From contig CAYUCQ010000002.1 of assembly GCA_964443535.1 (NCBI GenBank), positions 1-34,044 on the forward strand: a DNA stretch of 34,044 nucleotides, given 5' to 3'. This DNA comes from Candidatus Woesearchaeota archaeon (GTDB lineage Archaea > Nanobdellota > Nanobdellia > Pacearchaeales > GW2011-AR1). The notes under the pieces are model-generated. The model searched no databases and was not told the origin of the DNA. It saw only the letters and a program-made list of their open reading frames with translations. The position numbers and the translations under genes are program-made. Shown in pieces: positions 1 to 15,715 of the stretch (its first letter is position 1; every line of letters starts with the position of its first letter).

Positions 1-217
1 TGAGCAAACTACTGGCAAAATCATCAGAAACATTAAATATCCTCGGAACTCTCGGAGGAACTCCTTGAACAGTGGCAGTAGCGTTAAAAGGTCCAAGTTG
101 CGGTTCTTCAAACAATCCTTTTAGCCAATCACCAAAACCTGCGCTGGCAAAAGAAATTGTTGCAAATAAAATAAATACAGAAAATATAATATAAATAATT
201 TTTTTATTCTTCATCAT
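1..217 (-). CDS. Secreted protein, N-terminal 72 aa only (runs off the window edge)
   Basis: Manual translation MMKNKKIIYIIFSVFILFATISFASAGFGDWLKGLFEEPQLGPF...: basic N-region, hydrophobic core and ASA cleavage motif. TATA-like TTTATAAA near 253-260. Not in the ORF track. Confidence 0.75.
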   Translation of the reverse strand, partial: MMKNKKIIYIIFSVFILFATISFASAGFGDWLKGLFEEPQLGPFNATATVQGVPPRVPRIFNVSDDFASSLL

Positions 218-275: not shown

Positions 276-3200
276 TTATATAAACGTATGCGGCGGTATT
301 GTAGTTATTTCCCAAGTGTTTGCTCCGCCAGCTCTATACTCTGCAGCAGCGATAATTGGAACTTCTCTAAGGCAAATAAATATTTCTTCTTGTCCTGAAT
401 TTGCATCTTCTGTATTCTTGGAATTGTTGCCAGAAGGCAAGCTGGCTCCAACAGCTTGCTTTTGCACGCCGTGCTCCAAGATAGTCTCTGCACACGATAA
501 CGAGCTAGTGCTGCTAATGCTGAAATTAGGAGCAGAAATTAAATTAGTTCCAGAAGGCTGCTGCAAAAGATTTCTTCCTGTAATATTAATATTGCTAAAA
601 AGAGTATTTCCAGTATTATTCAGCAATAAGTCAACGCTCTTATTTTTCTCTCCTGGCACTAGATTTCCAAAAGATAAAACACCTTGATGTGAAACAAAAG
701 CTTCTGACATTAAAATAAAGCTCTCGTTCCTAAAGCCTTGCCCTCCCAAAGAATCAATGACAGAAGAGCTAACATTCCATTGCCCTGGAGAATCAAAATA
801 CCATATGTCCACAGAGCACGAGTAATTTGCAGTTACAGAATTTACATCTGCTAAGCGGGCGCAGGAAGAATTTGTCCTAACTAATGTTCCGTTGCTAAAG
901 CTGGCGTTTAAATTAACTAAATTCTGCAGCTTGCCGCTCTGCACTAAAACAGAAAAATTAACATATCTCACCCTGCCAGGATTTATATTCAAATTGCCTA
1001 TATTAGAAATATCAAGAACCTTCAAGGGAAAGTCTATGAATAAATATCTTTCTTCTGTTTTGTTTTTATTTCCCACAAAATCTCCTGCAAATGTCTGATA
1101 TCTATAGCTTCCATCTGTTAAATTACTTTGATTAACATATAAGCTCCATGCAGTTTGATTATATTTGTTAAGATTAGAATAATACTGCTCCATCACCTCA
1201 CTTCCAGATAGACTTCTATTCCAAATTTTAACCTCGTCAATTGTCCCATTAAATGTTTTTGCAGCAGTATCGTCATTTCCTATAATTACAGGTATTTCAT
1301 ACGGGATATCTAAACTCTGGAGAGTCGTAACAGTAGAGTCTATCACAATTCCATTTATATAAAGAGTTAAAGAGCTTCCTGCAACATAAACGCCAGTATA
1401 ATAATTCCACTTGTTAATTACAAAGGGATCATATCCAAAAGGAGTATTAACTCCTGCAGAACCTCCGCCTTTTCTTACTGTAAATGCTACACGCCCTCCA
1501 TTGTTGCTTCTGTAAAGAAATCTAAATGGTCCGTAATTTTTGCTTTCATTTGACTTGGATAATATAGTTACATCTGAAAAAACAGGTCGTATGCGCGCCC
1601 AAAAAGATACTGTCAATCCAGAAGAATAATTTTGATTTAAAGAAGTTGCATTTCCCACATTAATAAAATCGCCATCGCCGTCAAATTCATAAGCTCCCCC
1701 ATATTTCCCGCTAGAATTAAAAGTAGCTCCTACAACAAGACCATTATTCTTATATCTGCTGACATCTGCTACATAAGTAAAATTCTCTCCCAGAAGGCTT
1801 CTATTATCAAAATTAGTCATAAGAATAATAGACTCGTCATATAATGTAAAATTAGTGCCATTCCAATTAAAAATAACTTCTTTCAAATTATCTTCTGTTA
1901 TACTGACATTTATGCCTACAAAATAACTTTGTATAGTAGTCCCATTAGGAGGAGTTGGATTAGTAAAATTAAGCTCGGGAACAAAACTATCTTCTCCAAA
2001 ACCAAAGAATAAGTTTCTATTACTAATCATATTCCAAGATTGCATTAGAGTCTGGCTCAAATCAGAAGGAGTAGCGCTAAACATATAATTAGAATAATAA
2101 TTAGTTTCCGTGCCTCCAGTATTATTTTGCACATATTCAAGAACAGATTGCTTTGCTATCTTTCCATTGCTTCCTGTTAAAACAGAAAATCGCAGATTGT
2201 CATTTATATCTCTCGCACTTATATTCGCATTCGGCGCTGCAGAGCTATTTGTATAATTAGCATAAGCTTCGACATACCAATGCACATTCAAAGTGCCTTG
2301 GGCGCCATCATCCCAAAAATTATCTAAACTTCCTATTGATCCTGTTACATTAGTAAAGTTCCACTCCCCGCCTAAAACAGAGCTGTTAATTACAAAATCA
2401 CCAATTCCAGAAGCAGAGGCATTCAATGCTCCGTCATATAAACTAAAGTTATGATTTCCATCATCAAGATAAAAGCCGTAACTAGAAAGGCCCGCAATAG
2501 TTTTAAAATTAAAATCTCTAAATATATTATTGTTTGAGCTCGTGCCTAATATTGCGCCAATGCTTGAAATACCAGAAGTAAAAACTCTGCTTAAACTAAA
2601 ATTATTGTTATTGCTTGAGATAAGAGCGATACCATGTCCAAATGATCCGCTAGAGTTAATAGTGCTATTATGGATGTCTGTATTAAAACTTGAGATTAAA
2701 ATAATACCAAAACCTTGCTCACCAAAAGTAGTGATGGTATTGTTAGAAAGTTTGCTAAAATTAGTGCCGCTTGACAAAATGACCCCATAGCTGACATTGG
2801 AAAAAGTAGTAATCTTATTATTTTTCAAACTATTATTTAATCCGCTCAAAAGTTCAATTCCATATCCTGTACTGCCTAATGTAATTATTATATTATCACT
2901 AAAATTATTTCTGTCAGAAGTTGTAAGCGCAAAGTGAAGAGAAATTCCTCTTGTACTATTTCCAAAAGTAGTAATATTATTTTTATGAATAAAATTGTCT
3001 GTGCTTCCTCCTACAGTGATGCCATCTGCAAGGTTATTTCCGGTGATGATAAGATTATTGCCTACTAAGTTATTTGAAGACTGGGAAATAACTCTAATTC
3101 CTTTTGCATTAAAGCCTTTAGTTGTGATATTGTTATATAAAACACTTGAGTTGCCAATACTATTAATATGAATGCCATGTGCATCATTATCATTAGTAAC

Positions 3201-5036
3201 TACCGTATTATTAACAACATTATAATTTTTTCCATCCAAATCCAGATAAATTCCATAGCTGAAACTATCAAAAGTCTTTATTGAATTATTCGCAACCATC
3301 ATATTAGCGCCGCCTCTCAATCGTATTCCCTTTCCGCCATCAGTTTGGAAGCTGTTATTCGTTATTGTGGCATTAAATGCAAGGAAGAAATTAATTCCAT
3401 GGTTATCTGCCCTGTTTAAGCCCTGAGTTATTTTGCAATTTCTTATAGTAGTATAATTATTTCCAAGTACAGAAGAAAATCCATACCTTGCTGCGCCAAG
3501 AACTGTTCCATAAGTTATTCCAAATCCCTTGCAGTCCAAAGTTACATTATTTGCCAAGACGCTAAAACAAGTTGCTGTAGAAGCCACATTAGCAGTCAAT
3601 GTATAAACACAGTTTGGAACATCCAGATTTCCGCACACTGCAGTGCCTCCACAAGCCAGATTATTGGCATAGGCTGTTTCATTTCCGAACTCAAACTTTA
3701 ATGTATGCGCTCCTGGTGTTAAAACTTTGCTTGTCTCGTAACTAGTAAAATTGCAGGAATAATTTTCAACCAGTGCGTAGCAAGAATCTGTTGCGCAGCT
3801 CTCCCCTCCAATAAACTGCGTGTTAACAATATTTTCTCCGCATTTTAATTCCAAGAATTTCAAATCATATCCTTCTTCAGCAGAATCTGTCCATGTTGTC
3901 CCATTTGTGGCAGTTATTTTCAAATCAGCTGTTCCTGTGGTATTAAATAAGACAGTCCAATTGCCTCCAACTGTAGGATAACTCTGCACATTAAGAATAG
4001 TTATGCTAATTTCAAAAGTCTGATTGCTTAAATGAGGAGTATTCCATTCAACATAATCAATAAGTCCATTGCTATTTTTATCAAAAGCGCTAAATGGCTC
4101 ATAGCTTCCTTCTTCAACCCAATAAACTCTAATAGAACTTTCTTTTCCAACTGCCAAAATTTCCGGCAAATCAGTAAAAGTTAGAATATTTTCATATCCT
4201 AGTTCTGGTCCAGAAATAAAAACTTTTTTCTTATGCTCATCAATCTGCTCCTCAAAAGCGGCAGGCCCATCAGTAGCATATTCAACTTCATAAACAGCCG
4301 TCTCGTCCTGAACAACAACTTCTTTAGAATCTCCTTTCTCTATTATCTCGCTCTCTACTAATTCAGGGCTTGTTAATATTTCCGGCTCTTCACTATTATT
4401 TAGCTCTTCAGTTTCATTAATAATCTTATCAACCGTTTCATTTACAACTTTTTCTTGAACAGCAATTTCTGAATCATTTATCTCAAGTCCAGTTTCATTC
4501 TTAGTTTCATTTAAAATAATCTCGCCTTTAGTTTCATCAACAGTTTCTTTAGCTACTTTTTTTTCTTTTTCAACAACCTCGCTCTCTGCAACATTAGCCT
4601 CTGCTATTTTCTTAATTACAATATTTTCTGCTTCTTTAGGAAGCAGAATTACATTCTCGCCTTCTTTTAAATCAACTCTCTTTATCCATTTTACAGGCTT
4701 TCCTATTACAGGCCTGTCAACAATCTGCGCATCAAAGCTGATATTAGAAGCTTTTTCTATAGCAGGAGCAAAAAAAACATAATCCTGGCCTAAAAGATTA
4801 GAAAAGATGCCAAAAGTTAATCCTAAAAAAACAGATATCAAAACAATAAGGGAGATATTAACTAAAAACACTTTCTTATCATCTTTAACTAAAGGCGAAT
4901 TTGCACTATCATTAGACTCATTTTTTTTAGCAGGTCCAAGATAAGTATTAACAACTTTTCCATTTAGCCTTTTAGTCTCATATAAGTAAGGCCCAAATAC
5001 CTTGCCTCCTTTTTTTATATATTTATGATACGCCAT
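276..5036 (-). CDS. Giant membrane-anchored surface protein with right-handed beta-helix (NosD/PbH1-like) repeats, LamG/concanavalin-like domain and Ig-like segments
   Basis: 1586 aa. N-terminal TM helix, repeated GI.l..s.nn.i.nN.I.T beta-helix turns, LamG motifs (GAYEFDGDGDFI, FNGTIDEVKIWNRSLS) and many NxS/T sequons. Confidence 0.85.
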   Translation of the reverse strand: MAYHKYIKKGGKVFGPYLYETKRLNGKVVNTYLGPAKKNESNDSANSPLVKDDKKVFLVNISLIVLISVFLGLTFGIFSNLLGQDYVFFAPAIEKASNISFDAQIVDRPVIGKPVKWIKRVDLKEGENVILLPKEAENIVIKKIAEANVAESEVVEKEKKVAKETVDETKGEIILNETKNETGLEINDSEIAVQEKVVNETVDKIINETEELNNSEEPEILTSPELVESEIIEKGDSKEVVVQDETAVYEVEYATDGPAAFEEQIDEHKKKVFISGPELGYENILTFTDLPEILAVGKESSIRVYWVEEGSYEPFSAFDKNSNGLIDYVEWNTPHLSNQTFEISITILNVQSYPTVGGNWTVLFNTTGTADLKITATNGTTWTDSAEEGYDLKFLELKCGENIVNTQFIGGESCATDSCYALVENYSCNFTSYETSKVLTPGAHTLKFEFGNETAYANNLACGGTAVCGNLDVPNCVYTLTANVASTATCFSVLANNVTLDCKGFGITYGTVLGAARYGFSSVLGNNYTTIRNCKITQGLNRADNHGINFFLAFNATITNNSFQTDGGKGIRLRGGANMMVANNSIKTFDSFSYGIYLDLDGKNYNVVNNTVVTNDNDAHGIHINSIGNSSVLYNNITTKGFNAKGIRVISQSSNNLVGNNLIITGNNLADGITVGGSTDNFIHKNNITTFGNSTRGISLHFALTTSDRNNFSDNIIITLGSTGYGIELLSGLNNSLKNNKITTFSNVSYGVILSSGTNFSKLSNNTITTFGEQGFGIILISSFNTDIHNSTINSSGSFGHGIALISSNNNNFSLSRVFTSGISSIGAILGTSSNNNIFRDFNFKTIAGLSSYGFYLDDGNHNFSLYDGALNASASGIGDFVINSSVLGGEWNFTNVTGSIGSLDNFWDDGAQGTLNVHWYVEAYANYTNSSAAPNANISARDINDNLRFSVLTGSNGKIAKQSVLEYVQNNTGGTETNYYSNYMFSATPSDLSQTLMQSWNMISNRNLFFGFGEDSFVPELNFTNPTPPNGTTIQSYFVGINVSITEDNLKEVIFNWNGTNFTLYDESIILMTNFDNRSLLGENFTYVADVSRYKNNGLVVGATFNSSGKYGGAYEFDGDGDFINVGNATSLNQNYSSGLTVSFWARIRPVFSDVTILSKSNESKNYGPFRFLYRSNNGGRVAFTVRKGGGSAGVNTPFGYDPFVINKWNYYTGVYVAGSSLTLYINGIVIDSTVTTLQSLDIPYEIPVIIGNDDTAAKTFNGTIDEVKIWNRSLSGSEVMEQYYSNLNKYNQTAWSLYVNQSNLTDGSYRYQTFAGDFVGNKNKTEERYLFIDFPLKVLDISNIGNLNINPGRVRYVNFSVLVQSGKLQNLVNLNASFSNGTLVRTNSSCARLADVNSVTANYSCSVDIWYFDSPGQWNVSSSVIDSLGGQGFRNESFILMSEAFVSHQGVLSFGNLVPGEKNKSVDLLLNNTGNTLFSNINITGRNLLQQPSGTNLISAPNFSISSTSSLSCAETILEHGVQKQAVGASLPSGNNSKNTEDANSGQEEIFICLREVPIIAAAEYRAGGANTWEITTIPPHTFI

Positions 5037-5126: not shown

Positions 5127-8100
5127 CTACTTTTTTTCTTGCTTGGGTTTTTCTTTCACGACTGATTTTTCTTTTGCAACTATAATTTTAGTACTATGTA
5201 TGAATTTGCGCAATTCTTTTTCTTTGACTTTGAAAGGCGAGTGAAGCAAGGGCCTGAATTCAATAAAGTAAGGAGAGCCTTTATTGTAATCAGAGCACTC
5301 TACCATGCCTAATCCTGTAGACAATCTTGAAAGCAGAGTGCTTATCTTTGAGCTGTGCCTGTCTCTCGCTCTTTTAATGTCTCCCTCATATCTTGTTCTC
5401 ATCTGTATTTGAGTTCCTATATTTCCCCTTATAGCCCCTTTGAAGTCTGTCAGCACTTGAGAAATCATTAGCAATCCTATGCCCCATTTTCTAAACTCTC
5501 TGACTGCCTGCTCAAGCTTGACATAAGCTCTGCTGCCGCCATATTTAGGCAATAATCTATGAACTTCGTCAAGTACAATCAAATGCCTCAAAGAGCTGCT
5601 CTCTGACAATCTCGCCCTGTAAATTCTATCAAGACTATTTTCAATAAACATATCCAAGACTTTAGGAGACAATTTATCCAGCTTGAATATTGTTAATCCT
5701 GATTTCTTCAAATAATAAACAACATCCAAATTCATGGTGTTTTTATTAATTTCAATAACTCTGGCATTAAACGCCATTGGCTTGCTCAAGGAAAACTTCT
5801 TGTAAAGCGAGCGCATTCCTTTATCATTATTTTTTTCAAGGAAGCCTGTCCATTGTCCTGTAGGATCAAAAACAATAATGCTCTGTCCTGCTCTCTTCTT
5901 TAATAATTCCTCAACAGCAACCATTCCTGCAACAGTCTTTCCTGCGCCTGTTCCTCCTGCAATTAAAGTGTGCCTGTTCAACTGCGTATGGTCAAGATAA
6001 GTCTTGACTCCAGAGTCTGCAACATGCCCTACATAAGCGAAATGCGACTTAGGAAGCAAAGCAAAGTCCGGAAATACATATATGCTCTTCTTCTTCATTT
6101 CTTCTACTTTTTTCTCAAACAACCTGCGCCTCAAATAAGCAAAATAATAAATTAATATTATAACTAATATAACAACAAACAAGCCTGCCAAAATAAAAGG
6201 AAGATAAACAACAGAAAAACTATTTGCTAAAAAACTGGAAAGCTTCCCAAACCCGCTTATGAAAGGGCTAAATAGCTGGCCTCTTCCAACTTTGAATGCC
6301 TGCTTAATCAGCACAACACTTTCAGAATCGTAGGATGCGCTTACAATCAATTCATAATCCCCAAAATTAACATTATTTGGAATATTCAGCTTTTTTTCCA
6401 GCGATAAAGAATCTTCAATTTTCAAATTCTCTGTTTCGCTTGAAACTATATTGCCTTCATTATCAACAATCACATAGAGAAATTCCACATCATAACTATC
6501 AAGTCTGCCAAGATTAAAAACAGACATTTTGAACTCCAGCAAATCCCCTGGAAGAAGAACATATTTTTCAATAATCGCCTCCCCATTTAATAATTTCTCT
6601 TCCAAGCCCTTGACTATAATTCTTACTGGAAGAACATAAGCTGCTTCATTAGCACTCACACCAGAGCCTGCGACAGAAGTGACAAATCCGTTCTCTAATA
6701 TATTTTCGCCATCTTCAGCATCCTCTCCAAAGAAATATATATTTCCAACATAAACACCCTTATCTAATCCAAATATTCTGATTCTAACATCTCTTGTCTG
6801 CAATGCTGGTATTTCCACACTATTATTTACAGAAATTATATTAGCCAAGGATTTATCAATTAAAACATCTATCTTCGTCAAAATATTTATCTTTAAATCG
6901 TTTTCATCCAGGCTTGTAATAAGAATGTTTTCAAAAACTTCTTCTCCGATATTCATCACTCTTTCTATAGTGTTTACGCTAACATGAAAATTTCCTTTTT
7001 CAAGAACAAGCTTGGGCTTAGCCACAGAGGTCGTTCCGCTACCACTGCTCCCGCTAGAGCTGCTGCTCGTGCTAGCAGCAACAGCAGTAGAAATGCTAAA
7101 TGTCCTGCTATGAGTATAATTCTTATTTCCCATAGTGTCATTTGCATAAACACTAAGAGTATAACTGCCGTCGGCTATGCTGGAATTAGTGCGATTAAAC
7201 ACTGCCCCGAACAAGCTTGTATGATCAGCGCTATAAAACATGCTAAAATTATTTATCCCTCCATTTAGGCTATATTGCACGCTTCCATTCTCATTTAAAG
7301 AGACATTAATATTAACAGAAGAGGCGCCAATGCTTTGCCCATCTGTAGGAGCATTTATAGTAACTATAGGCGCAATACTATCGTTATTAAAACTAAATAT
7401 CAAATTTCTATTAGTAGTCATATTCCATGATTGAGATAATACTTCTCCAGGCAAAGTAGCATTAAATGTATAATTAGAATAATAATTAGTTTCTACTCCT
7501 CCGCTGTCATTTTGCGTGTATTCCAGCAATGCTTGTTTCACAATTCTTCCATCGCTTCCTGTTAAGACAGAAAATCGCACGAAATTATTAATGTCAAAAG
7601 CGCTTACATTCGCATTGGGTGCTGCAGAATTGTTTGCATAGCTTGCATTGACTTCCAAATGCCAGTGCACATTTAAAGTTCCATTAGCTCCTGCATTCCA
7701 TGTTTTGTCACTAAATGTAACATTTGTAAGATTCCAAATACCTCCATTTGCAGCGCCTGCCACAAGAAAATCATCTGCACTTGAAGACAATGAGCTATCA
7801 CTAAAACTAAAATTATTATTGTTTCCTGAAATATAAATATTACTAGTACCAACAGCACCGCCTCTTATAACATGGTTGCTAAAACTATTATTGTTAGTGC
7901 CTGTATTCTCGCCAAAAAGAACACCTACGCCATTAGCACCTATATTATGAATAAAATTGCCTATAAATTGATTATTTAAAGATCTAGCCAGATTAACGCC
8001 ATTGCCGCTGCCAAAAGCAGTAAGATTATTATGATATATTCTATTATTAAAAGCGGTAGTAGAGTCTAACTCTATCACATGCGAAGATGAACCATAAGTT

Positions 8101-10037
8101 GAGATGTTATTATGACTAATGTTATTATTAGAACTCGCGCCAGAAATAAGAATACCGTCTGTGCTTGAGCCACTGGTTACAATTCTATTATGTATTACAG
8201 TATTATTGCTTGAAGAATCAAATATCAATCCTCTCGTAGCAGTAACATTAATAAAATTACTAATTATCATGTTACTCGATGATAAAAAATAAATGCCTGC
8301 ATTGCCTGCGCCTGTTCCGAAACTTAATATAGTGTTATTAGTTATATTTGTATACCTTGTAGCAAGGTTATCACTTATACCGACCGAGTTAGTCCCATTA
8401 ACTATTATAGTATTATTAAATATAGTAGTATTGAACGCGTTTGATAAGAAAATAGCATCGTCTGTATTTCCTGTAGTATTTCCTTCAAAGATAACAAGAT
8501 CTCTTATCATGCTAAAGTTTGCCGCAGTAACATATATTGCATAGGATGATTCAGAAGAATTAGTTCCGTTAATAGAATAGTTTATTGTATATCCCTGCCC
8601 ATTAAGAGTTATATTGTTAGCAGTTATATTAAAGCAAGTTCCGCTGCTTGAATTTACATCTTGTGTTAATGTATAAATTGAATTTGAAGTATTAAGGACC
8701 TGGCATGAGGTAACGCTAGGGTCAAATATATAATCAAAATCAACATCTCCTCCTCTAACTCTTAAATCAAAAGTATCCTGGCTGCTCATCAAATCATTCA
8801 ATAAAACCCTATATCTATCATCTGCAAATACTCCCCTGAATTCTGCAATCATATCATCTCCATTTTCCTCGTAAACTTCAATATCTGCGCTAGAACTGCT
8901 TCTCGCGAAGATAGTAATATCTTTGTTTGTAGTTAAATTAGTCTCAAAACTAATTCTAATATAATGTCCGTCAGGAATAGTTGCATAATCTCCATCTTTT
9001 GCTCTTATTTTTTCATAAACATCTTCAACAAAAACCTTATTTTCATCAAGATGCTCTGCATCAGTTATCAAAATTATCTCAAATGTCTGCTCACTCAAAT
9101 GAGGAACTATCCATGCTATATAATCATAAATTCCATCTGCGTCATTATCAAGAATATTTTCAGCAGGAATATATTTGCTTTCCTCTTTCCAATAAATTCT
9201 TACGCTTTCCGAATCACTAATGCCTATCTCTTCAGAAAGTTCTGTAAATGCAAGAACATTATCATAATGAATCTCGTCAGGCCCGATAATCTTTACTCGC
9301 TTTCCGTTCTCTAAATCTTCTTCAATAGAATAAGGTGCTTCAGTGTAATACTCTATTTCAACTTCAGATACAGGCTCCCTGACATCAAAATGAGTAACCT
9401 CCTGTTCAGTCGTTTCTTCAGAAACAGCAAGTCCTGTGAATCTCAAAAATCCCCTGCCAAAGCCCTGTTTATTTTCGTAAGAAGTATCAACAAAAACATT
9501 GCCTTCGTCATCAGTCAAAGTTTCATTTATTAATACATTAATTTCTTCATCAACTTGCTTAATATGAACAACAGATAAATTCTTTGCTATTAAAGGAATC
9601 GCGATTGAAAGATTTGAAGCTTTGGAAAGCACAATCTTTTTATTCCATTTTACAGGCATTCCAAGAATCGCCCCGTATTGAGATGTTTTTATATTGGCAT
9701 TAACTCCAGACTTATCATCAAAAACATCTATCTCTTTTATTAGAACATTATTTTCAATATAATCTAAAGTATTATCCCCATTTATCCCAATTTTTTCAGT
9801 TTTTTCAACAACAACACTGCCAGTTATTTCAAAAGGTGTGGCAAAAAGCAAAAGTAGGACAATGAAAAAGAGGCATAGGGTAAAAATAAGGAAAAATATA
9901 TTTTTCCTTTCATGAAAATATCCCTTCTTAGGCTGTCCAAGATAACTTGTAACAACTTTTCCATCTATCCTCTTATTCTCATACAAGTAAGGCCCGAATA
10001 CCTTCCCTCCTTTTTTTATATATTTCTCATAAACCAA
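5127..10037 (-). CDS. Giant surface beta-helix protein fused to a C-terminal HerA/FtsK-like (DUF87-type) P-loop ATPase
   Basis: 1636 aa, TTG start. N-terminal TM, beta-helix, Ser-rich linker, second TM followed by RRR, then RHTLIAGGTGAGKT (Walker A), VFDPTGQW, LIVLDEVHR (Walker B), REFRKWGIGLLMISQ. Confidence 0.85.
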   Translation of the reverse strand: MVYEKYIKKGGKVFGPYLYENKRIDGKVVTSYLGQPKKGYFHERKNIFFLIFTLCLFFIVLLLLFATPFEITGSVVVEKTEKIGINGDNTLDYIENNVLIKEIDVFDDKSGVNANIKTSQYGAILGMPVKWNKKIVLSKASNLSIAIPLIAKNLSVVHIKQVDEEINVLINETLTDDEGNVFVDTSYENKQGFGRGFLRFTGLAVSEETTEQEVTHFDVREPVSEVEIEYYTEAPYSIEEDLENGKRVKIIGPDEIHYDNVLAFTELSEEIGISDSESVRIYWKEESKYIPAENILDNDADGIYDYIAWIVPHLSEQTFEIILITDAEHLDENKVFVEDVYEKIRAKDGDYATIPDGHYIRISFETNLTTNKDITIFARSSSSADIEVYEENGDDMIAEFRGVFADDRYRVLLNDLMSSQDTFDLRVRGGDVDFDYIFDPSVTSCQVLNTSNSIYTLTQDVNSSSGTCFNITANNITLNGQGYTINYSINGTNSSESSYAIYVTAANFSMIRDLVIFEGNTTGNTDDAIFLSNAFNTTIFNNTIIVNGTNSVGISDNLATRYTNITNNTILSFGTGAGNAGIYFLSSSNMIISNFINVTATRGLIFDSSSNNTVIHNRIVTSGSSTDGILISGASSNNNISHNNISTYGSSSHVIELDSTTAFNNRIYHNNLTAFGSGNGVNLARSLNNQFIGNFIHNIGANGVGVLFGENTGTNNNSFSNHVIRGGAVGTSNIYISGNNNNFSFSDSSLSSSADDFLVAGAANGGIWNLTNVTFSDKTWNAGANGTLNVHWHLEVNASYANNSAAPNANVSAFDINNFVRFSVLTGSDGRIVKQALLEYTQNDSGGVETNYYSNYTFNATLPGEVLSQSWNMTTNRNLIFSFNNDSIAPIVTINAPTDGQSIGASSVNINVSLNENGSVQYSLNGGINNFSMFYSADHTSLFGAVFNRTNSSIADGSYTLSVYANDTMGNKNYTHSRTFSISTAVAASTSSSSSGSSGSGTTSVAKPKLVLEKGNFHVSVNTIERVMNIGEEVFENILITSLDENDLKINILTKIDVLIDKSLANIISVNNSVEIPALQTRDVRIRIFGLDKGVYVGNIYFFGEDAEDGENILENGFVTSVAGSGVSANEAAYVLPVRIIVKGLEEKLLNGEAIIEKYVLLPGDLLEFKMSVFNLGRLDSYDVEFLYVIVDNEGNIVSSETENLKIEDSLSLEKKLNIPNNVNFGDYELIVSASYDSESVVLIKQAFKVGRGQLFSPFISGFGKLSSFLANSFSVVYLPFILAGLFVVILVIILIYYFAYLRRRLFEKKVEEMKKKSIYVFPDFALLPKSHFAYVGHVADSGVKTYLDHTQLNRHTLIAGGTGAGKTVAGMVAVEELLKKRAGQSIIVFDPTGQWTGFLEKNNDKGMRSLYKKFSLSKPMAFNARVIEINKNTMNLDVVYYLKKSGLTIFKLDKLSPKVLDMFIENSLDRIYRARLSESSSLRHLIVLDEVHRLLPKYGGSRAYVKLEQAVREFRKWGIGLLMISQVLTDFKGAIRGNIGTQIQMRTRYEGDIKRARDRHSSKISTLLSRLSTGLGMVECSDYNKGSPYFIEFRPLLHSPFKVKEKELRKFIHSTKIIVAKEKSVVKEKPKQEKK

Positions 10038-11260: not shown

Positions 11261-12454
11261 ATGGTAGGATGCGATTATTGCGAAAAGCCAACTGACGGTT
11301 ATGCTCACAAATGCAAGTTCTGTGGGCAAGTTCATTGTTCGGAACATTTGTTGCCAGAGTCGCATGATTGCAGGGGATTAGAATATCGCAAACAAAAAAA
11401 TTCTGAAAGATGGGGCAGGGCAGTAACCGGCCATTCTATTAACACTAAATATAATATTGATGAAGAGTCCGTTTATGAAAAGCCAACAAAAAACGTTAAA
11501 CAACACCATAAAAAACAGAAGTTTTCTGATAAGTTAAAGGGCTATGCTATCACAAAATATGAAAGTCTAAGATATTGGTTAAGAAAGAGAGAGCATCATC
11601 GATATGATTTTGAAGGGAGATCAAGCTATCTAATTACTACGATTCTAATTCTTGCGACGGCTATTGTAGGTGTTGCTATCTTCTACTCTAATGCAGAAAA
11701 ATTGAATGAGATTGACTTCTGGATCATAAAACTCGGAGGAGTATTAATCTTAGTTTCTCTGTTTTTTGCAATTAAATATGGGTGGAGATTTGGCAAGGAA
11801 ATGATTAATATCTTTAAGAGACAAAAAAATTGGTTTAGATATTTAGTTATAATTTTGATAGTTATTTTACTTTGGCAAGGTTATACGCATAAGGACAATG
11901 TTTTGAATCCTGTCTTTGAAACTTATAATAAAACTAACTTTACCTTGCTGATGCCTATCGGGATAAGTAATTTTAGCTTAGGCGAGAGTAATAGCGATGT
12001 TTCGTTTGATTATTCATCAGGCCAAGATAGTAAAAAAACATTCGATTTTGATATTCCTTCATCTAGTAAATCAGCTGGAGATCTGGCTGAAATAGAAAGT
12101 AGAATCTTAGTGTTAGTAAATGAAGAAAGAGCCAGAAATGGAGCTCATGCCTTAAGGACTAATAACAATCTTGATAACCTTGCACAGAAGCATAGTGATA
12201 GGATGATATCAGAAGATTTCTTTGAACATAGTCATTACAACGTAGGAGAAAATATTGGAGAAGTTCCTCTCCACTATAATGTTTTAGGATGTGGTTCAAC
12301 TTACTCAAATGATGATATGGCTGAATGTATGGTTACAGGTTGGATAGAAAGTCCAGGGCATCACATGAATATGATAGACAGAAGTTATGGGTCAACAGGT
12401 ATTGGCGTTGCGTGCGATAGCTCAAAATGTAGGGGCACGCAAATGTTCAGTTAG
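11261..12454 (+). CDS. AN1-type zinc finger + 3 TM + CAP (SCP/PR-1) domain protein
   Basis: N-terminal CDYC...CKFCGQVHCSEHLLPESHDC. C-terminal CAP motifs LVNEERARNG, AQKHSDRM, GENI, GWIESPGHHMNM, GIGV. Confidence 0.85.
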   Translation: MVGCDYCEKPTDGYAHKCKFCGQVHCSEHLLPESHDCRGLEYRKQKNSERWGRAVTGHSINTKYNIDEESVYEKPTKNVKQHHKKQKFSDKLKGYAITKYESLRYWLRKREHHRYDFEGRSSYLITTILILATAIVGVAIFYSNAEKLNEIDFWIIKLGGVLILVSLFFAIKYGWRFGKEMINIFKRQKNWFRYLVIILIVILLWQGYTHKDNVLNPVFETYNKTNFTLLMPIGISNFSLGESNSDVSFDYSSGQDSKKTFDFDIPSSSKSAGDLAEIESRILVLVNEERARNGAHALRTNNNLDNLAQKHSDRMISEDFFEHSHYNVGENIGEVPLHYNVLGCGSTYSNDDMAECMVTGWIESPGHHMNMIDRSYGSTGIGVACDSSKCRGTQMFS

Positions 12455-13725: not shown

Positions 13726-14358
13726 ATGCAATCAACACATTCAATAACAATCCAACAAAGAGGAGATAAAATACATAGATACGAAAGCAAAAATCAGAAT
13801 GATTTTGTGATTGAAGAAGACATTGCCGGATTAGACGCAAATGTTCTTGTTGATTTAGCTGAAAGTGAAGAATTTAAGCATAATATTAGAGAACAAATAA
13901 GTATTGGCGTACGGAAATTTTATACAACAAATGTGGCGCTTGGAGAAGCAAGACACGTTTTAGTGAAGAAAAGAAAATATAAACATCAAGATGCAACAGA
14001 CAAACTCCAAAATATTCTTAAAGAGTTTAACATAACTAAGATAAACCATAATAGGGAGAGCAATGATTTAGGAAATAATTGGGTAGATATTGTGAAGAAA
14101 CAAACACACATCAAAAAATTTAGAACCTTCCCGACCGATTGCAGAATTCTCGCCAATTTATTCAAACAAGCAAAAGTTAACCTCTATTTTACAGAAGATC
14201 AAGATATAGAAAAAGCACTAAATATTCTAAAGGTTCCGATTAGAATAAGAATTGTAGGAGAGGCTTCACAGCTAGATAGTTTTGAAATTAAAAGATTCTT
14301 TCAGGAGCAATTTAAGGAAAAGCGCAAAGCTTTTCATAAATCTCGGAAGCGTCGTTAA
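13726..14358 (+). CDS. PIN-domain (VapC-like) nuclease
   Basis: Acidic PIN residues in LDANVLVD, ALGEARH, PTDCRIL, FTEDQD. Confidence 0.7.
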   Translation: MQSTHSITIQQRGDKIHRYESKNQNDFVIEEDIAGLDANVLVDLAESEEFKHNIREQISIGVRKFYTTNVALGEARHVLVKKRKYKHQDATDKLQNILKEFNITKINHNRESNDLGNNWVDIVKKQTHIKKFRTFPTDCRILANLFKQAKVNLYFTEDQDIEKALNILKVPIRIRIVGEASQLDSFEIKRFFQEQFKEKRKAFHKSRKRR

Positions 14359-14976: not shown

Positions 14977-15216
14977 ATGAGCGAAAAATGCAAGAATTGC
15001 CGTAGAGAGTTTAATTCTGGTATATGGATTTCTCCGCAATTTGCAGATGAAAAAGCCTTATTATTCTGTTCAGAAAAATGTAAAAAAGAATATCTCAAAA
15101 TGAAGCTTGAAAGAATAAAGGTTAATTATCCAAAGTTTCATGAAAAAATAATGCAAACCTCTAAAAATTGGAAAGAAGGTGTATTTTGGAAAGGGAAGGA
15201 TAAAAATGAAAGATAA
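14977..15216 (+). CDS. Small zinc-finger protein (TRASH/MYM-like CxxC...FCSxxC)
   Basis: CKNC...FCSEKC, 79 aa. Confidence 0.65.
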   Translation: MSEKCKNCRREFNSGIWISPQFADEKALLFCSEKCKKEYLKMKLERIKVNYPKFHEKIMQTSKNWKEGVFWKGKDKNER

Positions 15217-15715
15217 ATTCCAATTAACAAAAGAAGAAACAGAAGCCCTATATACAATAATTAAGGAGTACGAAAAGGACGCTCCCGAAAGCGACAAAGA
15301 ATATTATGACGATTACTATGATGAATACAAGACTCCGATAAAAAAGAGAACAATAAAGTCTATTCTAAATAAAATTACTAATTTATTGCCTGAAGAACAA
15401 AAAGAAGAAATAGACAAGGATTTTCTGAGGCAAAAATATCACACATTTAATAACGAAGTCAATGAAAGAGTTTATTCTATAATTGAAAAGGCATTTAATC
15501 AATTAAAGACCATTGAAATAGAGTATTTTAATATGGAAAGCGCAAAGTTCAGCAAAAGAAAGCTTGATGTTTATCATAAATCAAGAAAGTATGTTATTGG
15601 ATACTGTCATTTAAGAAAGGACATAAGAAAATTCAGAACACATAGAATCGCCTCTGCCAAATTGACAAGAGATAGCTATAAAATTCCGGAGGATTTTGAT
15701 AAGAATAGGTATTAA
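15206..15715 (+). CDS. WYL-domain protein without an obvious HTH
   Basis: IEIEYFN...KRKLDVY...YVIGYCHLRKDIRKFRTHRI. Start moved to the ATG at 15206, which follows a GGAAGG RBS. Confidence 0.85.
   Translation: MKDKFQLTKEETEALYTIIKEYEKDAPESDKEYYDDYYDEYKTPIKKRTIKSILNKITNLLPEEQKEEIDKDFLRQKYHTFNNEVNERVYSIIEKAFNQLKTIEIEYFNMESAKFSKRKLDVYHKSRKYVIGYCHLRKDIRKFRTHRIASAKLTRDSYKIPEDFDKNRY

Follow-up and report, generated by a model that had tools for sequence, protein, structure and literature searches.

A predicted membrane-spanning adhesin with a HerA-clade ATPase domain in a Woesearchaeota archaeon

Here we describe a gene of a Candidatus Woesearchaeota archaeon (GTDB lineage Archaea; Nanobdellota; Nanobdellia; Pacearchaeales; GW2011-AR1) whose product, P0001, combines a large adhesion-type ectodomain with a P-loop ATPase on the predicted cytoplasmic side of the membrane. 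The gene is located in a stretch of 34,044 bases (hereafter "the window"), which represents the first part of a 50,745-base contig (CAYUCQ010000002.1) of assembly GCA_964443535.1; the genome consists of 609,508 bases in 47 contigs and is about 85% complete. The window has a G + C content of 0.30–0.37 and carries the archaeal marker genes S24e, an Rpb7-like subunit, a YGR210-type GTPase and HisRS. The DPANN-type, host-dependent setting proposed in an earlier annotation of the sequence (the original prediction) is supported, and the closest homologues of P0001 are found in records titled Nanoarchaeota or Woesearchaeota. P0001, with the architecture given in Table 1, almost certainly belongs to a family that has been published under the names of SPEARE proteins (Hamm 2019, PMC6642349) and 'giant membrane-anchored extracellular proteins' (Reva 2023, PMC10266531). 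The design that joins an adhesin to an ATPase is already known; P0001 adds features that are specific to its clade.

Table 1. Features of the adhesin-ATPase gene and of the adjoining surface-protein genes. Positions refer to the window; TM, transmembrane helix; KD, Kyte-Doolittle; ORF, open reading frame; aa, amino acids.
Feature	Position	Strand	Residues	Remarks
Adhesin-ATPase gene (P0001)	5127..10037	(-)	1,636 aa	intact ORF; TTG start; stop at 5127-5129
N-tail	9900..10037	(-)	1-46	basic, predicted cytoplasmic tail; conserved GK.FGPY.Y motif
TM1	9837..9899	(-)	47-67	predicted signal anchor; KD peak 3.31
Ectodomain N-module	8718..9836	(-)	68-440	conserved within the clade and with paralogue P0002
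Variable middle	7383..8717	(-)	441-885	sequon-rich parallel beta-helix repeats
Ig-like domain	7083..7370	(-)	890-985	Pfam Big_7 (0.0014) and Big_13 (0.0028), both under the cut-off
Ser/Thr-rich linker	7026-7073	(-)	989-1004	follows the Ig-like domain
Membrane-proximal ectodomain module	6213..7010	(-)	1010-1275	conserved together with the ATPase
TM2	6141..6212	(-)	1276-1299	KD peak 3.07; followed by LRRRL at 6120-6134
HerA-clade P-loop ATPase	5130..6140	(-)	1300-1636 (337 aa)	predicted cytoplasmic; Lys/Glu-rich tail of ~40 aa at the end
Walker A	5934-5957	(-)	1361-1368	intact
FDPTGQW motif	5850-5870	(-)		
Walker B	5559-5582	(-)	1486-1493	intact
REFRKWG	5481-5501	(-)	1513-1519	intact
ISQ strand	5454-5468	(-)	1525-1527	intact
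Downstream paralogue (P0002)	276..5036	(-)	1,586 aa	N-tail and TM as in P0001; ectodomain with beta-helix and LamG
Third surface or secreted protein, start only	2..217	(-)		signal-peptide-like N-terminus; ORF cut by the contig end

Architecture and membrane topology of P0001

The start codon of the gene is credible because the homologue P0003 and the neighbouring P0002 begin at the same residues, both with ATG. The order of elements stated in the original prediction, namely a TM helix, an ectodomain, a second TM helix followed by three arginines, and an ATPase, was confirmed by a Kyte-Doolittle scan, Pfam matches and a structural model. The topology was derived from the same scan together with counts of sequons and of charged residues. 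All 44 N-X-S/T sequons of the protein are situated between TM1 and TM2, where shuffled ectodomain sequences contained 24.2 ± 4.2 (0 of 2000 shuffles reached 44), and the 337-aa cytoplasmic part has none (1.2 expected). The ratios of K + R to D + E in the flanks are 4/1 before and 2/3 after TM1 and 1/0 before and 5/3 after TM2, which is consistent with the positive-inside rule for both helices. The ectodomain is acidic (72 K + R, 147 D + E), and the ATPase domain is basic (64 versus 34). Because sequons, flank charges and domain charges agree, the ATPase is predicted to be cytoplasmic and the beta-helix to be on the other side of the membrane, which bears out the original placement of the ATPase inside and of the sequon-rich part outside.

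The ectodomain spans about 1,200 residues (aa 68-1275) and is modular. Its N-module matches P0002 and adhesins of the same genus; P0003 is 48% identical to P0001 over aa 1-454, and the module is also matched in P0015, P0123 and P0126. A search with aa 68-440 yielded no Pfam family at E ≤ 1 and, in the ESM Atlas, only unnamed clusters at 0.85-0.90. The variable middle has a match to the Pfam family Beta_helix (aa 580-740; 1.7e-5) with 24.9 bits, just under the cut-off of 25.9, and the close homologues P0005-P0008 carry PF13229. Sequons are particularly frequent in this part of the protein, with 39 in aa 440-1000 (22.7 ± 3.9 in shuffles). Where P0001 has the beta-helix middle, P0003 has a stretch that contains LamG, a domain for which P0001 gave no Pfam match at E ≤ 0.1. 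The membrane-proximal module has only a weak match to DUF4625 (Pfam). In BLAST searches, the closest homologues all begin to match at aa 1006-1024, just past the Ser/Thr-rich linker, and the matches extend through the ATPase (70% identity between P0001 and P0003 over aa 1006-1623). Because of this common starting point, the membrane-proximal module, TM2 and the ATPase are taken as the conserved unit of the protein, and the beta-helix is a swappable cassette.

The N-tail is a basic stretch of 35-45 aa directly before the first TM helix, with the core motif GK.[FY]GPY.Y; aa 1-46 matched no Pfam family, even at E ≤ 1. The motif heads three giant surface proteins of the genome, namely P0001, P0002 (4908-5036, minus strand) and a 1,462-aa cadherin-like protein on contig 21 (C21:5708-5809, minus strand), which also ends in a TM helix. 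It is present in 24 of the 41 genomes of the same order (own genome included), and among the 40 matches listed, 25 are situated at the start of open frames that encode no fewer than 1,000 aa. The tail might serve in targeting, in anchoring or as a docking site in the cytoplasm. A docking of the N-tail on the ATPase was considered and dropped, as the N-tail adhesins occur in 24 of these 41 relatives and the ATPase in only three.

The ATPase domain, its family and known systems

The original prediction had assigned the cytoplasmic domain to the FtsK-HerA superfamily, with intact Walker A and B, RK.G and SQ motifs, and this is borne out by Pfam, by a search of PDB sequences and by fold comparison. 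Pfam identified DUF87, the central domain of HerA (2.3e-11; 44.6 bits, cut-off 23.2), and HerA_C (1e-7; 31.4 bits, cut-off 22), and weaker matches that cover the P-loop only to ResIII, DEAD, TrwB_AAD_bind and FtsK_SpoIIIE; the ResIII match (2.7e-5) is limited to the P-loop core (aa 1352-1498), and that to FtsK_SpoIIIE (0.011) is under the cut-off. NCBIfam matches to HerA, CedD, VirD4-like, TraD and TraC models reached at most 28 bits, as compared with cut-offs of 250-970. Eight of the nine PDB sequence matches at E ≤ 1 are of the HerA type (HerA itself with E values from 6.3e-8 to 1.2e-3). In an alignment of 35 members, DUF87 and HerA_C were each matched in 34, TrwB_AAD_bind and ResIII in 24, T4SS-DNA_transf in 18, FtsK_SpoIIIE in 12 and AAA_10 in nine; the N-terminal domain of VirB4 (PF03135) was not among the families matched at E ≤ 0.001 in these members, nor was it matched on P0001. 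The signatures of the superfamily, reportedly set out by Iyer and co-workers in 2004, comprise a P-loop core with Walker A and B, an arginine finger and a conserved glutamine that closes the sensor-1 strand. K112, D235, E236, R258, R261, S271 and Q272 (numbering of the model) are near-invariant across the 35 sequences, and R258 or R261 may represent the arginine finger.

TM2 and the ATPase were modelled using AlphaFold with the 35-sequence alignment (predicted local distance difference test, pLDDT, 90.7; predicted template modelling score, pTM, 0.85); a single-sequence model (pLDDT 41.8) was unusable and was replaced by it. The best Foldseek match of the model is Sulfolobus HerA (4d2i; E 3.7e-13). 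With VIA-align, Z scores were highest for HerA structures (25.9-24; 25.8 for 4d2i, with a root-mean-square deviation of 2.7 over 250 residues), followed by DndH-C (24.8) and VirB4 (4ag6; 22.6) and, at a greater distance, by TrwB (20.4), FtsK (18.3), EccC (18.2) and TrwK/VirB4 (18.1). Sequence matches and model together place the domain in the HerA clade of the FtsK-HerA superfamily, nearer to HerA than to VirB4/TraG by about three Z units. The absence of a HAS barrel noted in the original prediction agrees with the model, in which a stretch of about 35 aa with no more than two short strands links the TM helix to the P-loop strand and leaves no room for such a barrel. The net charge of the domain, +8.8 per 100 aa, is in the top 2.5% of the ORFs of at least 250 aa in the same genome. 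Among the homologues, the ATPase domain is positive in 215 of 229 and the ectodomain negative in 180 of 181. A three-copy prediction of aa 1317-1636, made without controls, scored 0.00 and says nothing for or against a ring.

The sole other DUF87 protein of the genome is encoded outside the window (C2:46393-47703, minus strand). It consists of 436 aa (DUF87 9.8e-8, HerA_C 2.8e-7) and may be a reduced HerA without the usual partner.

The original prediction had also considered that the fusion might be a misassembly or a one-off, and neither is the case. Logan contigs of sequencing runs from three studies cross TM2 with at least 40 bases on each side (run X3, 5850-6349; X4, 6101-6333; X6, 6073-6357). 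They stem from a slightly different strain, because each of them has two substitutions, the same in all three. The window itself may derive from one of the runs listed; run X1, which gave the best DNA match, has no contig over 6058-6196 and is uninformative, and no RNA runs were among those listed as matching the stretch. The same spacing between TM helix and ATPase was found across the family: a hydrophobic 19-mer is located 45-115 aa before Walker A in 215 of the 232 homologues that were obtained as proteins from a word-indexed and an exhaustive search. The joining of an adhesin to an unrelated ATPase by chimeric assembly, or by read-through from one gene into another, is therefore rejected as an explanation, and its probability is negligible. 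In runs X3 and X6, several further contigs resemble the window only over 30-50 bases within 5838-5999, around the codons of FDPTGQW and Walker A (90-95% identity), and differ beyond this; they probably represent homologous genes of co-occurring organisms.

The view that such ATPases are not normally fused to giant ectodomains did not hold, as the fusion defines a large DPANN family that is already in print. An exhaustive search of 1.84 billion representatives yielded 1,387, 454 and 330 cluster representatives at E ≤ 1e-3, 1e-10 and 1e-30, respectively, and at least 478 stretches of species-representative genomes encode a relative. The word-indexed search, which was restricted to proteins of 899-2,863 aa, recovered homologues of the C-terminal region in 276 of 4,873 candidates, with names that include Nanoarchaeota, Woese-, Pace-, Aenigm-, Micr-, Parv-, Alti- and Nanohaloarchaeota. 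The 232 homologues have a median length of 1,445.5 aa (longest, 7,665 aa); 179 have at least 500 aa upstream of the ATPase, and 100 have more than 150 aa after it. Two proteins, P0113 and P0118, are named Nanohaloarchaeota or Nanohalarchaeota. In the phylum of a record titled Nanohalarchaeota, 27 of 42 genomes carry the ATPase domain (38-47% identity, E down to 4.9e-93), and the largest open frames encode 12,145, 10,914, 9,591 and 8,146 aa.

A reversed form was also encountered (P0018, P0020, P0021; L006 8700-11816), with the ATPase at the N-terminus (aa ~37-350), followed by about 650 residues, and with no hydrophobic segment before Walker A at the threshold used; one of the source names is 'Flp pilus assembly ATPase TadA'. 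One reversed SPEARE is mentioned in an earlier report (Hamm 2019, PMC6642349).

The nanohaloarchaeal SPEARE proteins are up to 8,553 aa long and mostly extracytoplasmic, with a TM helix toward the C-terminus; they were defined as having at least one laminin-G domain, and their published name rests on a ResIII match (Hamm 2019, PMC6642349). The giant membrane-anchored extracellular proteins consist of a Sec signal, a giant ectodomain, a TM helix, a cytosolic "VirB4/TraG-like ATPase" and a coiled coil, and a second ATPase gene downstream is part of the described set (Reva 2023, PMC10266531). The accessible portions of Xie 2022, Hamm 2023 and the Sukunaarchaeum preprint merely cite the giant proteins, and those of the 'dark matter' paper (Makarova 2014) do not treat the fusion of adhesin and ATPase. 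Literature searches that combined DPANN, VirB4 and surface proteins returned only Reva 2023, and HerA- or DUF87-based searches on membrane ATPases of DPANN or other archaea returned nothing relevant, as judged by title or abstract.

The link between P0001 and this family was made via record titles, the phylum-wide search and the descriptions in the papers, and the accessions named there were set beside P0001 by description only. P0001 resembles the SPEARE proteins in its large adhesion-type ectodomain, the single TM helix near the C-terminus and the conserved cytoplasmic P-loop ATPase, which is homologous to that in the giant frames of the phylum with the Nanohalarchaeota title; the published ResIII match was reproduced on P0001. 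It differs from them in its length of just 1,636 aa and the lack of LamG (which P0002 and P0003 have). A 46-aa conserved N-tail with a predicted signal anchor takes the place of a plain Sec signal peptide, and instead of a C-terminal coiled coil there is just the short Lys/Glu-rich tail. The gene downstream encodes an adhesin paralogue, not a second ATPase or a coiled-coil protein, and P0001 belongs to a separate clade.

The clade was recovered in a FastTree phylogeny of 229 ATPase domains and the query, rooted on the other DUF87 protein of the genome (three domains of less than 270 aa were left out). The query falls into a clade of 27 sequences with a support of 0.998, which includes all seven sequences that have the N-tail motif; identity to the query is 54-75% inside the clade group and below 50% outside. 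The ATPase was found in just three of the 41 genomes of the same order (E ≤ 1e-20) and in none of the nine other genomes of the genus; the two other carriers (G024, G032) have a distant type with 41-45% identity. Because of this distribution, the ATPase is regarded as accessory and not as a core uptake route. N-tail adhesins of the same genus have ectodomain modules in common with P0001 (33-50% identity in pieces) and lack TM2 and the ATPase.

Among known systems, HerA (Sulfolobus, PDB 4D2I; PF01935/PF05872) is the best match to the ATPase of P0001 by sequence and fold, and Walker A, FD..G.. after strand 2, Walker B, RE.RK.G and the SQ strand align in the two proteins. Unlike HerA, P0001 lacks the HAS barrel, its ATPase is tethered to the membrane and fused to an ectodomain, and the scores for the NCBIfam HerA equivalogs (27.9 and 24.9 bits) are far below the cut-offs (800 and 970); NurA (PF09376) was not matched in the 85%-complete genome. 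VirD4/TrwB (PDB 1E9S) and VirB4 (PDB 4AG6) are membrane-tethered ring ATPases of the superfamily to which P0001 belongs. TrwB has its N-terminus inside, followed by a TM helix, an outside loop, a second TM helix and a cytoplasmic nucleotide-binding domain; P0001 is predicted to have an analogous two-helix topology, with the outside loop enlarged to about 1,200 aa. However, the match of P0001 to the TrwB profile covers only positions 13-56 of 387 (18.8 bits, cut-off 20.5), and no all-alpha domain is evident. P0001 also differs from VirB4, as it lacks the PF03135 domain, and partner genes of a type IV secretion system (T4SS) were not found in the 85%-complete genome (no match to PF03135 or to TrbL/VirB6, PF04610). 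The Ced/Ted ATPases of Crenarchaeota are archaeal membrane-associated proteins of the HerA/VirB4 type that function in DNA import between cells; P0001 matches the NCBIfam model 'CedD' (NF053655) weakly (1.6e-6; 27.1 bits, cut-off 600), and Ced proteins are not known to have a giant ectodomain. FtsK/SpoIIIE and the EccC/EssC proteins of type VII secretion are membrane-anchored motors of the same superfamily as well (FtsK for DNA, EccC for proteins), but they are farther from P0001 than HerA is, and P0001 has a single ATPase domain and neither gamma nor FHA domains.

Neighbouring genes and variation at the locus

Gene neighbourhoods of the wider family were compared in 80 loci using crude ORF calls (at least 70 aa, greedy); many of the loci without a coiled-coil gene end early. 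In 56 loci, the ATPase gene is followed on its own strand by a gene for a cytoplasmic, Lys/Glu-rich coiled-coil protein of about 528 aa without TM helices, which lies directly downstream in 43. Of the other neighbours, a surface protein of about 1,900 aa with NPCBM_assoc/MG2 domains is encoded in 35 loci, a ParA/MinD-like ATPase in 22 and a KaiC-like ATPase in 10, and some loci add genes for a histidine kinase, a response regulator and CheX-like proteins. Same-strand clusters headed by the ATPase gene are exemplified by L012 (11307-20786), L014 (11347-20876) and L030 (6017-9274), and there are 53 further loci. No conserved polytopic membrane neighbour was found in the 80 loci. The coiled-coil partner was not detected by profile search (E ≤ 1) in any of the eight informative loci of the close clade (the window, L001, L004-L007, L103, L104), nor among the ORFs of the genome of P0001, which is 85% complete; coiled coils diverge fast, and the partner may have been missed. 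The next gene in L104, as in the window, encodes another large anchored surface protein.

That gene in the window is the neighbouring paralogue of the original prediction, which was confirmed. P0002 has neither a C-terminal TM helix nor an ATPase, and its Laminin_G_3 match (Pfam) has an E value of 6.4e-22. In a genome of the same genus (G002), the corresponding place is taken by an orthologue (356 aa, 74% identity) of the truncated ORF at the contig end, which adjoins the orthologue of P0002 just as the truncated ORF adjoins P0002 in the window. The slot that corresponds to P0001 (C1:27467-33403) is occupied there by an unrelated surface protein of 1,978 aa with beta-helix, MopE-like metal-binding, calcineurin-like phosphoesterase and phytase domains. 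The position upstream of the P0002 orthologue thus seems to vary in which giant surface protein it encodes.

P0002 and its orthologue in the same genus (G002:C1:33648-39686) end, without a TM helix, in a common short motif, ...TWEITTIPPHTF followed by one residue, and two further N-tail adhesins of the genus (L095, L096) have a common C-terminal motif that is different from that of P0002. Such motifs of N-tail adhesins without the ATPase could be sorting or anchoring signals of some kind.

Other genes of the window were noted in passing. A 397-aa protein (11261-12454, plus strand) combines an N-terminal AN1-type zinc finger with a C-terminal CAP (cysteine-rich secretory protein) domain, which is an unusual pairing. 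Within 10 kb upstream of the adhesin genes, a PIN-domain protein (13726-14358), a WYL-domain protein (15179-15715) and a homologue of the 'phage metallopeptidase' PF18894 (19566-19940) are encoded, all on the plus strand; these genes may be defence-related or mobile in origin.

Possible function and significance

We favour a reading that combines the family assignment with a ring-shaped motor acting at the contact with the host, and assign to it a probability of about 0.55. A glycosylated adhesin outside the cell would be joined by a membrane helix to the HerA-clade ATPase inside. With both ends anchored in the membrane, the ectodomain would form a loop whose variable beta-helix tip may bind glycans or proteins on the host surface, and the cytoplasmic domains of several copies would assemble into an ATP-dependent ring at the inner face of the membrane and bundle the arms. 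By homology with HerA, VirB4, TrwB and FtsK, the formation of such a ring is likely. The ring might spend ATP to move a polymer at the point of contact, a tentative step with the odds somewhat against it. DNA would be favoured over protein because the closest solved relatives all handle DNA (HerA, DndH, TdpA, VirB4, TrwB and FtsK are DNA-working or conjugative) and the domain is unusually basic; DNA as the substrate is still doubtful. The role in contact-dependent attachment, DNA uptake or secretion that was suggested in the original prediction is essentially a hypothesis that had already been put forward, as a proposal only, for the published family (Reva 2023, PMC10266531).

Several points weigh against the motor reading. 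In both papers, the function of the published family members is speculation (Hamm 2019, PMC6642349; Reva 2023, PMC10266531). The ring is deduced by homology, and 6 to 12 TM helices arranged in a ring would hardly make a DNA or protein channel by themselves; a conserved polytopic partner was not found in the 80 loci, where the neighbours are coiled-coil, surface, ParA/MinD-like and KaiC-like proteins, and the VirB4 N-domain, TrbL/VirB6 and NurA were not found in the 85%-complete genome. The distribution of the ATPase among the related genomes (3 of 41, and none of nine in the genus) is patchy. According to PDB entry titles, the HerA of anti-phage systems is an assembly platform and not a conduit. 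Proteins of low-GC genomes are often basic, and binding to acidic lipids would account for such a charge as well; the halophile homologue P0113 has an acidic ATPase domain. The retention of TM1 (versus its cleavage), and hence the loop with two anchors, is a prediction from the sequence.

Some of the same observations would suit a ring that moves no substrate. Its ATP-dependent assembly would cluster six adhesin arms and tie them to a cytoplasmic scaffold, and thereby set the avidity, placement or release of the contact, similar to the inside-out regulation of an adhesion plaque. A covalent 1:1 fusion of motor and arm is odd for a translocase and natural for a clustering base; the coiled-coil, ParA/MinD-like and KaiC-like neighbours in the wider family, with the counts given above, are parts for positioning or regulation and not for a channel; HerA is an assembly platform in the Sir2-HerA and DUF4297-HerA complexes (entry titles); and the patchy distribution is that of an accessory function. 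However, neither the genome of P0001 nor any of the eight informative loci of the clade yielded the coiled-coil partner, and one would more typically expect the catalytic and arginine-finger-like motifs to be fully conserved, as they are, in a working motor. We consider it unlikely on balance and keep it close behind the movement of a polymer.

The 'straw' that resembles a T4SS, in which a VirB4/TraG-like ATPase powers the delivery of effectors to the host, by injection through the giant ectodomain or along it, is in print (Reva 2023, PMC10266531). It agrees with the fold likeness to VirB4 (Z 22.6) and TrwB (Z 20.4), with the P-loop matches to TrwB_AAD_bind in 24 and to T4SS-DNA_transf in 18 of the 35 members, and with the tandem second ATPase genes in some genomes of the phylum with the Nanohalarchaeota title (G048, G052, G072, G043). 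For P0001 it is a slim prospect: HerA outscores VirB4 by sequence and fold, PF03135 is not listed for the 35 members and neither it nor TrbL/VirB6 was found in the genome, the gene downstream encodes an adhesin paralogue and not a second ATPase, and an ectodomain of beta-helix and Ig-like domains has no evident lumen. Even less probable, and rejected here on the HerA-like sequence and fold, is a restriction endonuclease tail that degrades incoming DNA (Hamm 2019, PMC6642349). The ResIII match on P0001 (2.7e-5) and on 24 of the 35 members would speak for it, but ResIII is a family of helicase/ATPase subunits, the match is limited to the P-loop core, DUF87 and HerA_C score better, and no nuclease domain was detected. 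The later study likewise rejects the nuclease and proposes the straw in its place (Reva 2023, PMC10266531).

For the clade of 27, the motor reading can be extended into a more speculative picture, which is rather improbable as a whole. The protein would be a loop-shaped adhesin with two feet, one consisting of the N-tail and TM1 and the other of the membrane-proximal module, TM2 and the HerA-type ring. At its distal tip, the loop would bear a beta-helix or LamG cassette that can be exchanged. If one ATP-driven ring held six of these loops, they would form a polymorphic, energy-coupled organelle for host recognition, whose motor might reel in or gate host DNA or might tighten and release the contact. 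The motor cassette would be portable and recombine onto lineage-specific adhesins, which would explain why the ATPase occurs in three and the N-tail adhesins in 24 of the 41 genomes.

The results sharpen the published picture of the family. Its motor is predicted to be closer to HerA than to VirB4/TraG and not to be a restriction enzyme. Relatives are present in records titled Nanoarchaeota (L001, L003, L005, L048) and Parvarchaeota (L031, P0043), groups in which, according to the literature, the family had not been found. The stated range is thereby extended, although a change of naming may account for some of this. In most of the family, a cytoplasmic coiled-coil protein is the conserved neighbour, of which there is no mention in the accessible text of Hamm 2019 and Reva 2023; the clade of P0001, in which this neighbour was not found, adds a conserved N-terminal tail of its own.

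The means by which DPANN archaea, which live attached to other archaea, keep hold of their hosts and take material from them are largely obscure. The combination of a surface adhesin with an internal motor of the HerA type is one of the few candidate machines for this contact, and the family is widespread: it comprises hundreds of clusters, and its largest proteins exceed 12,000 residues. P0001, with only 1,636 residues and an ATPase domain of 337 aa that folds with confidence in the model, would be a tractable member for biochemical studies.

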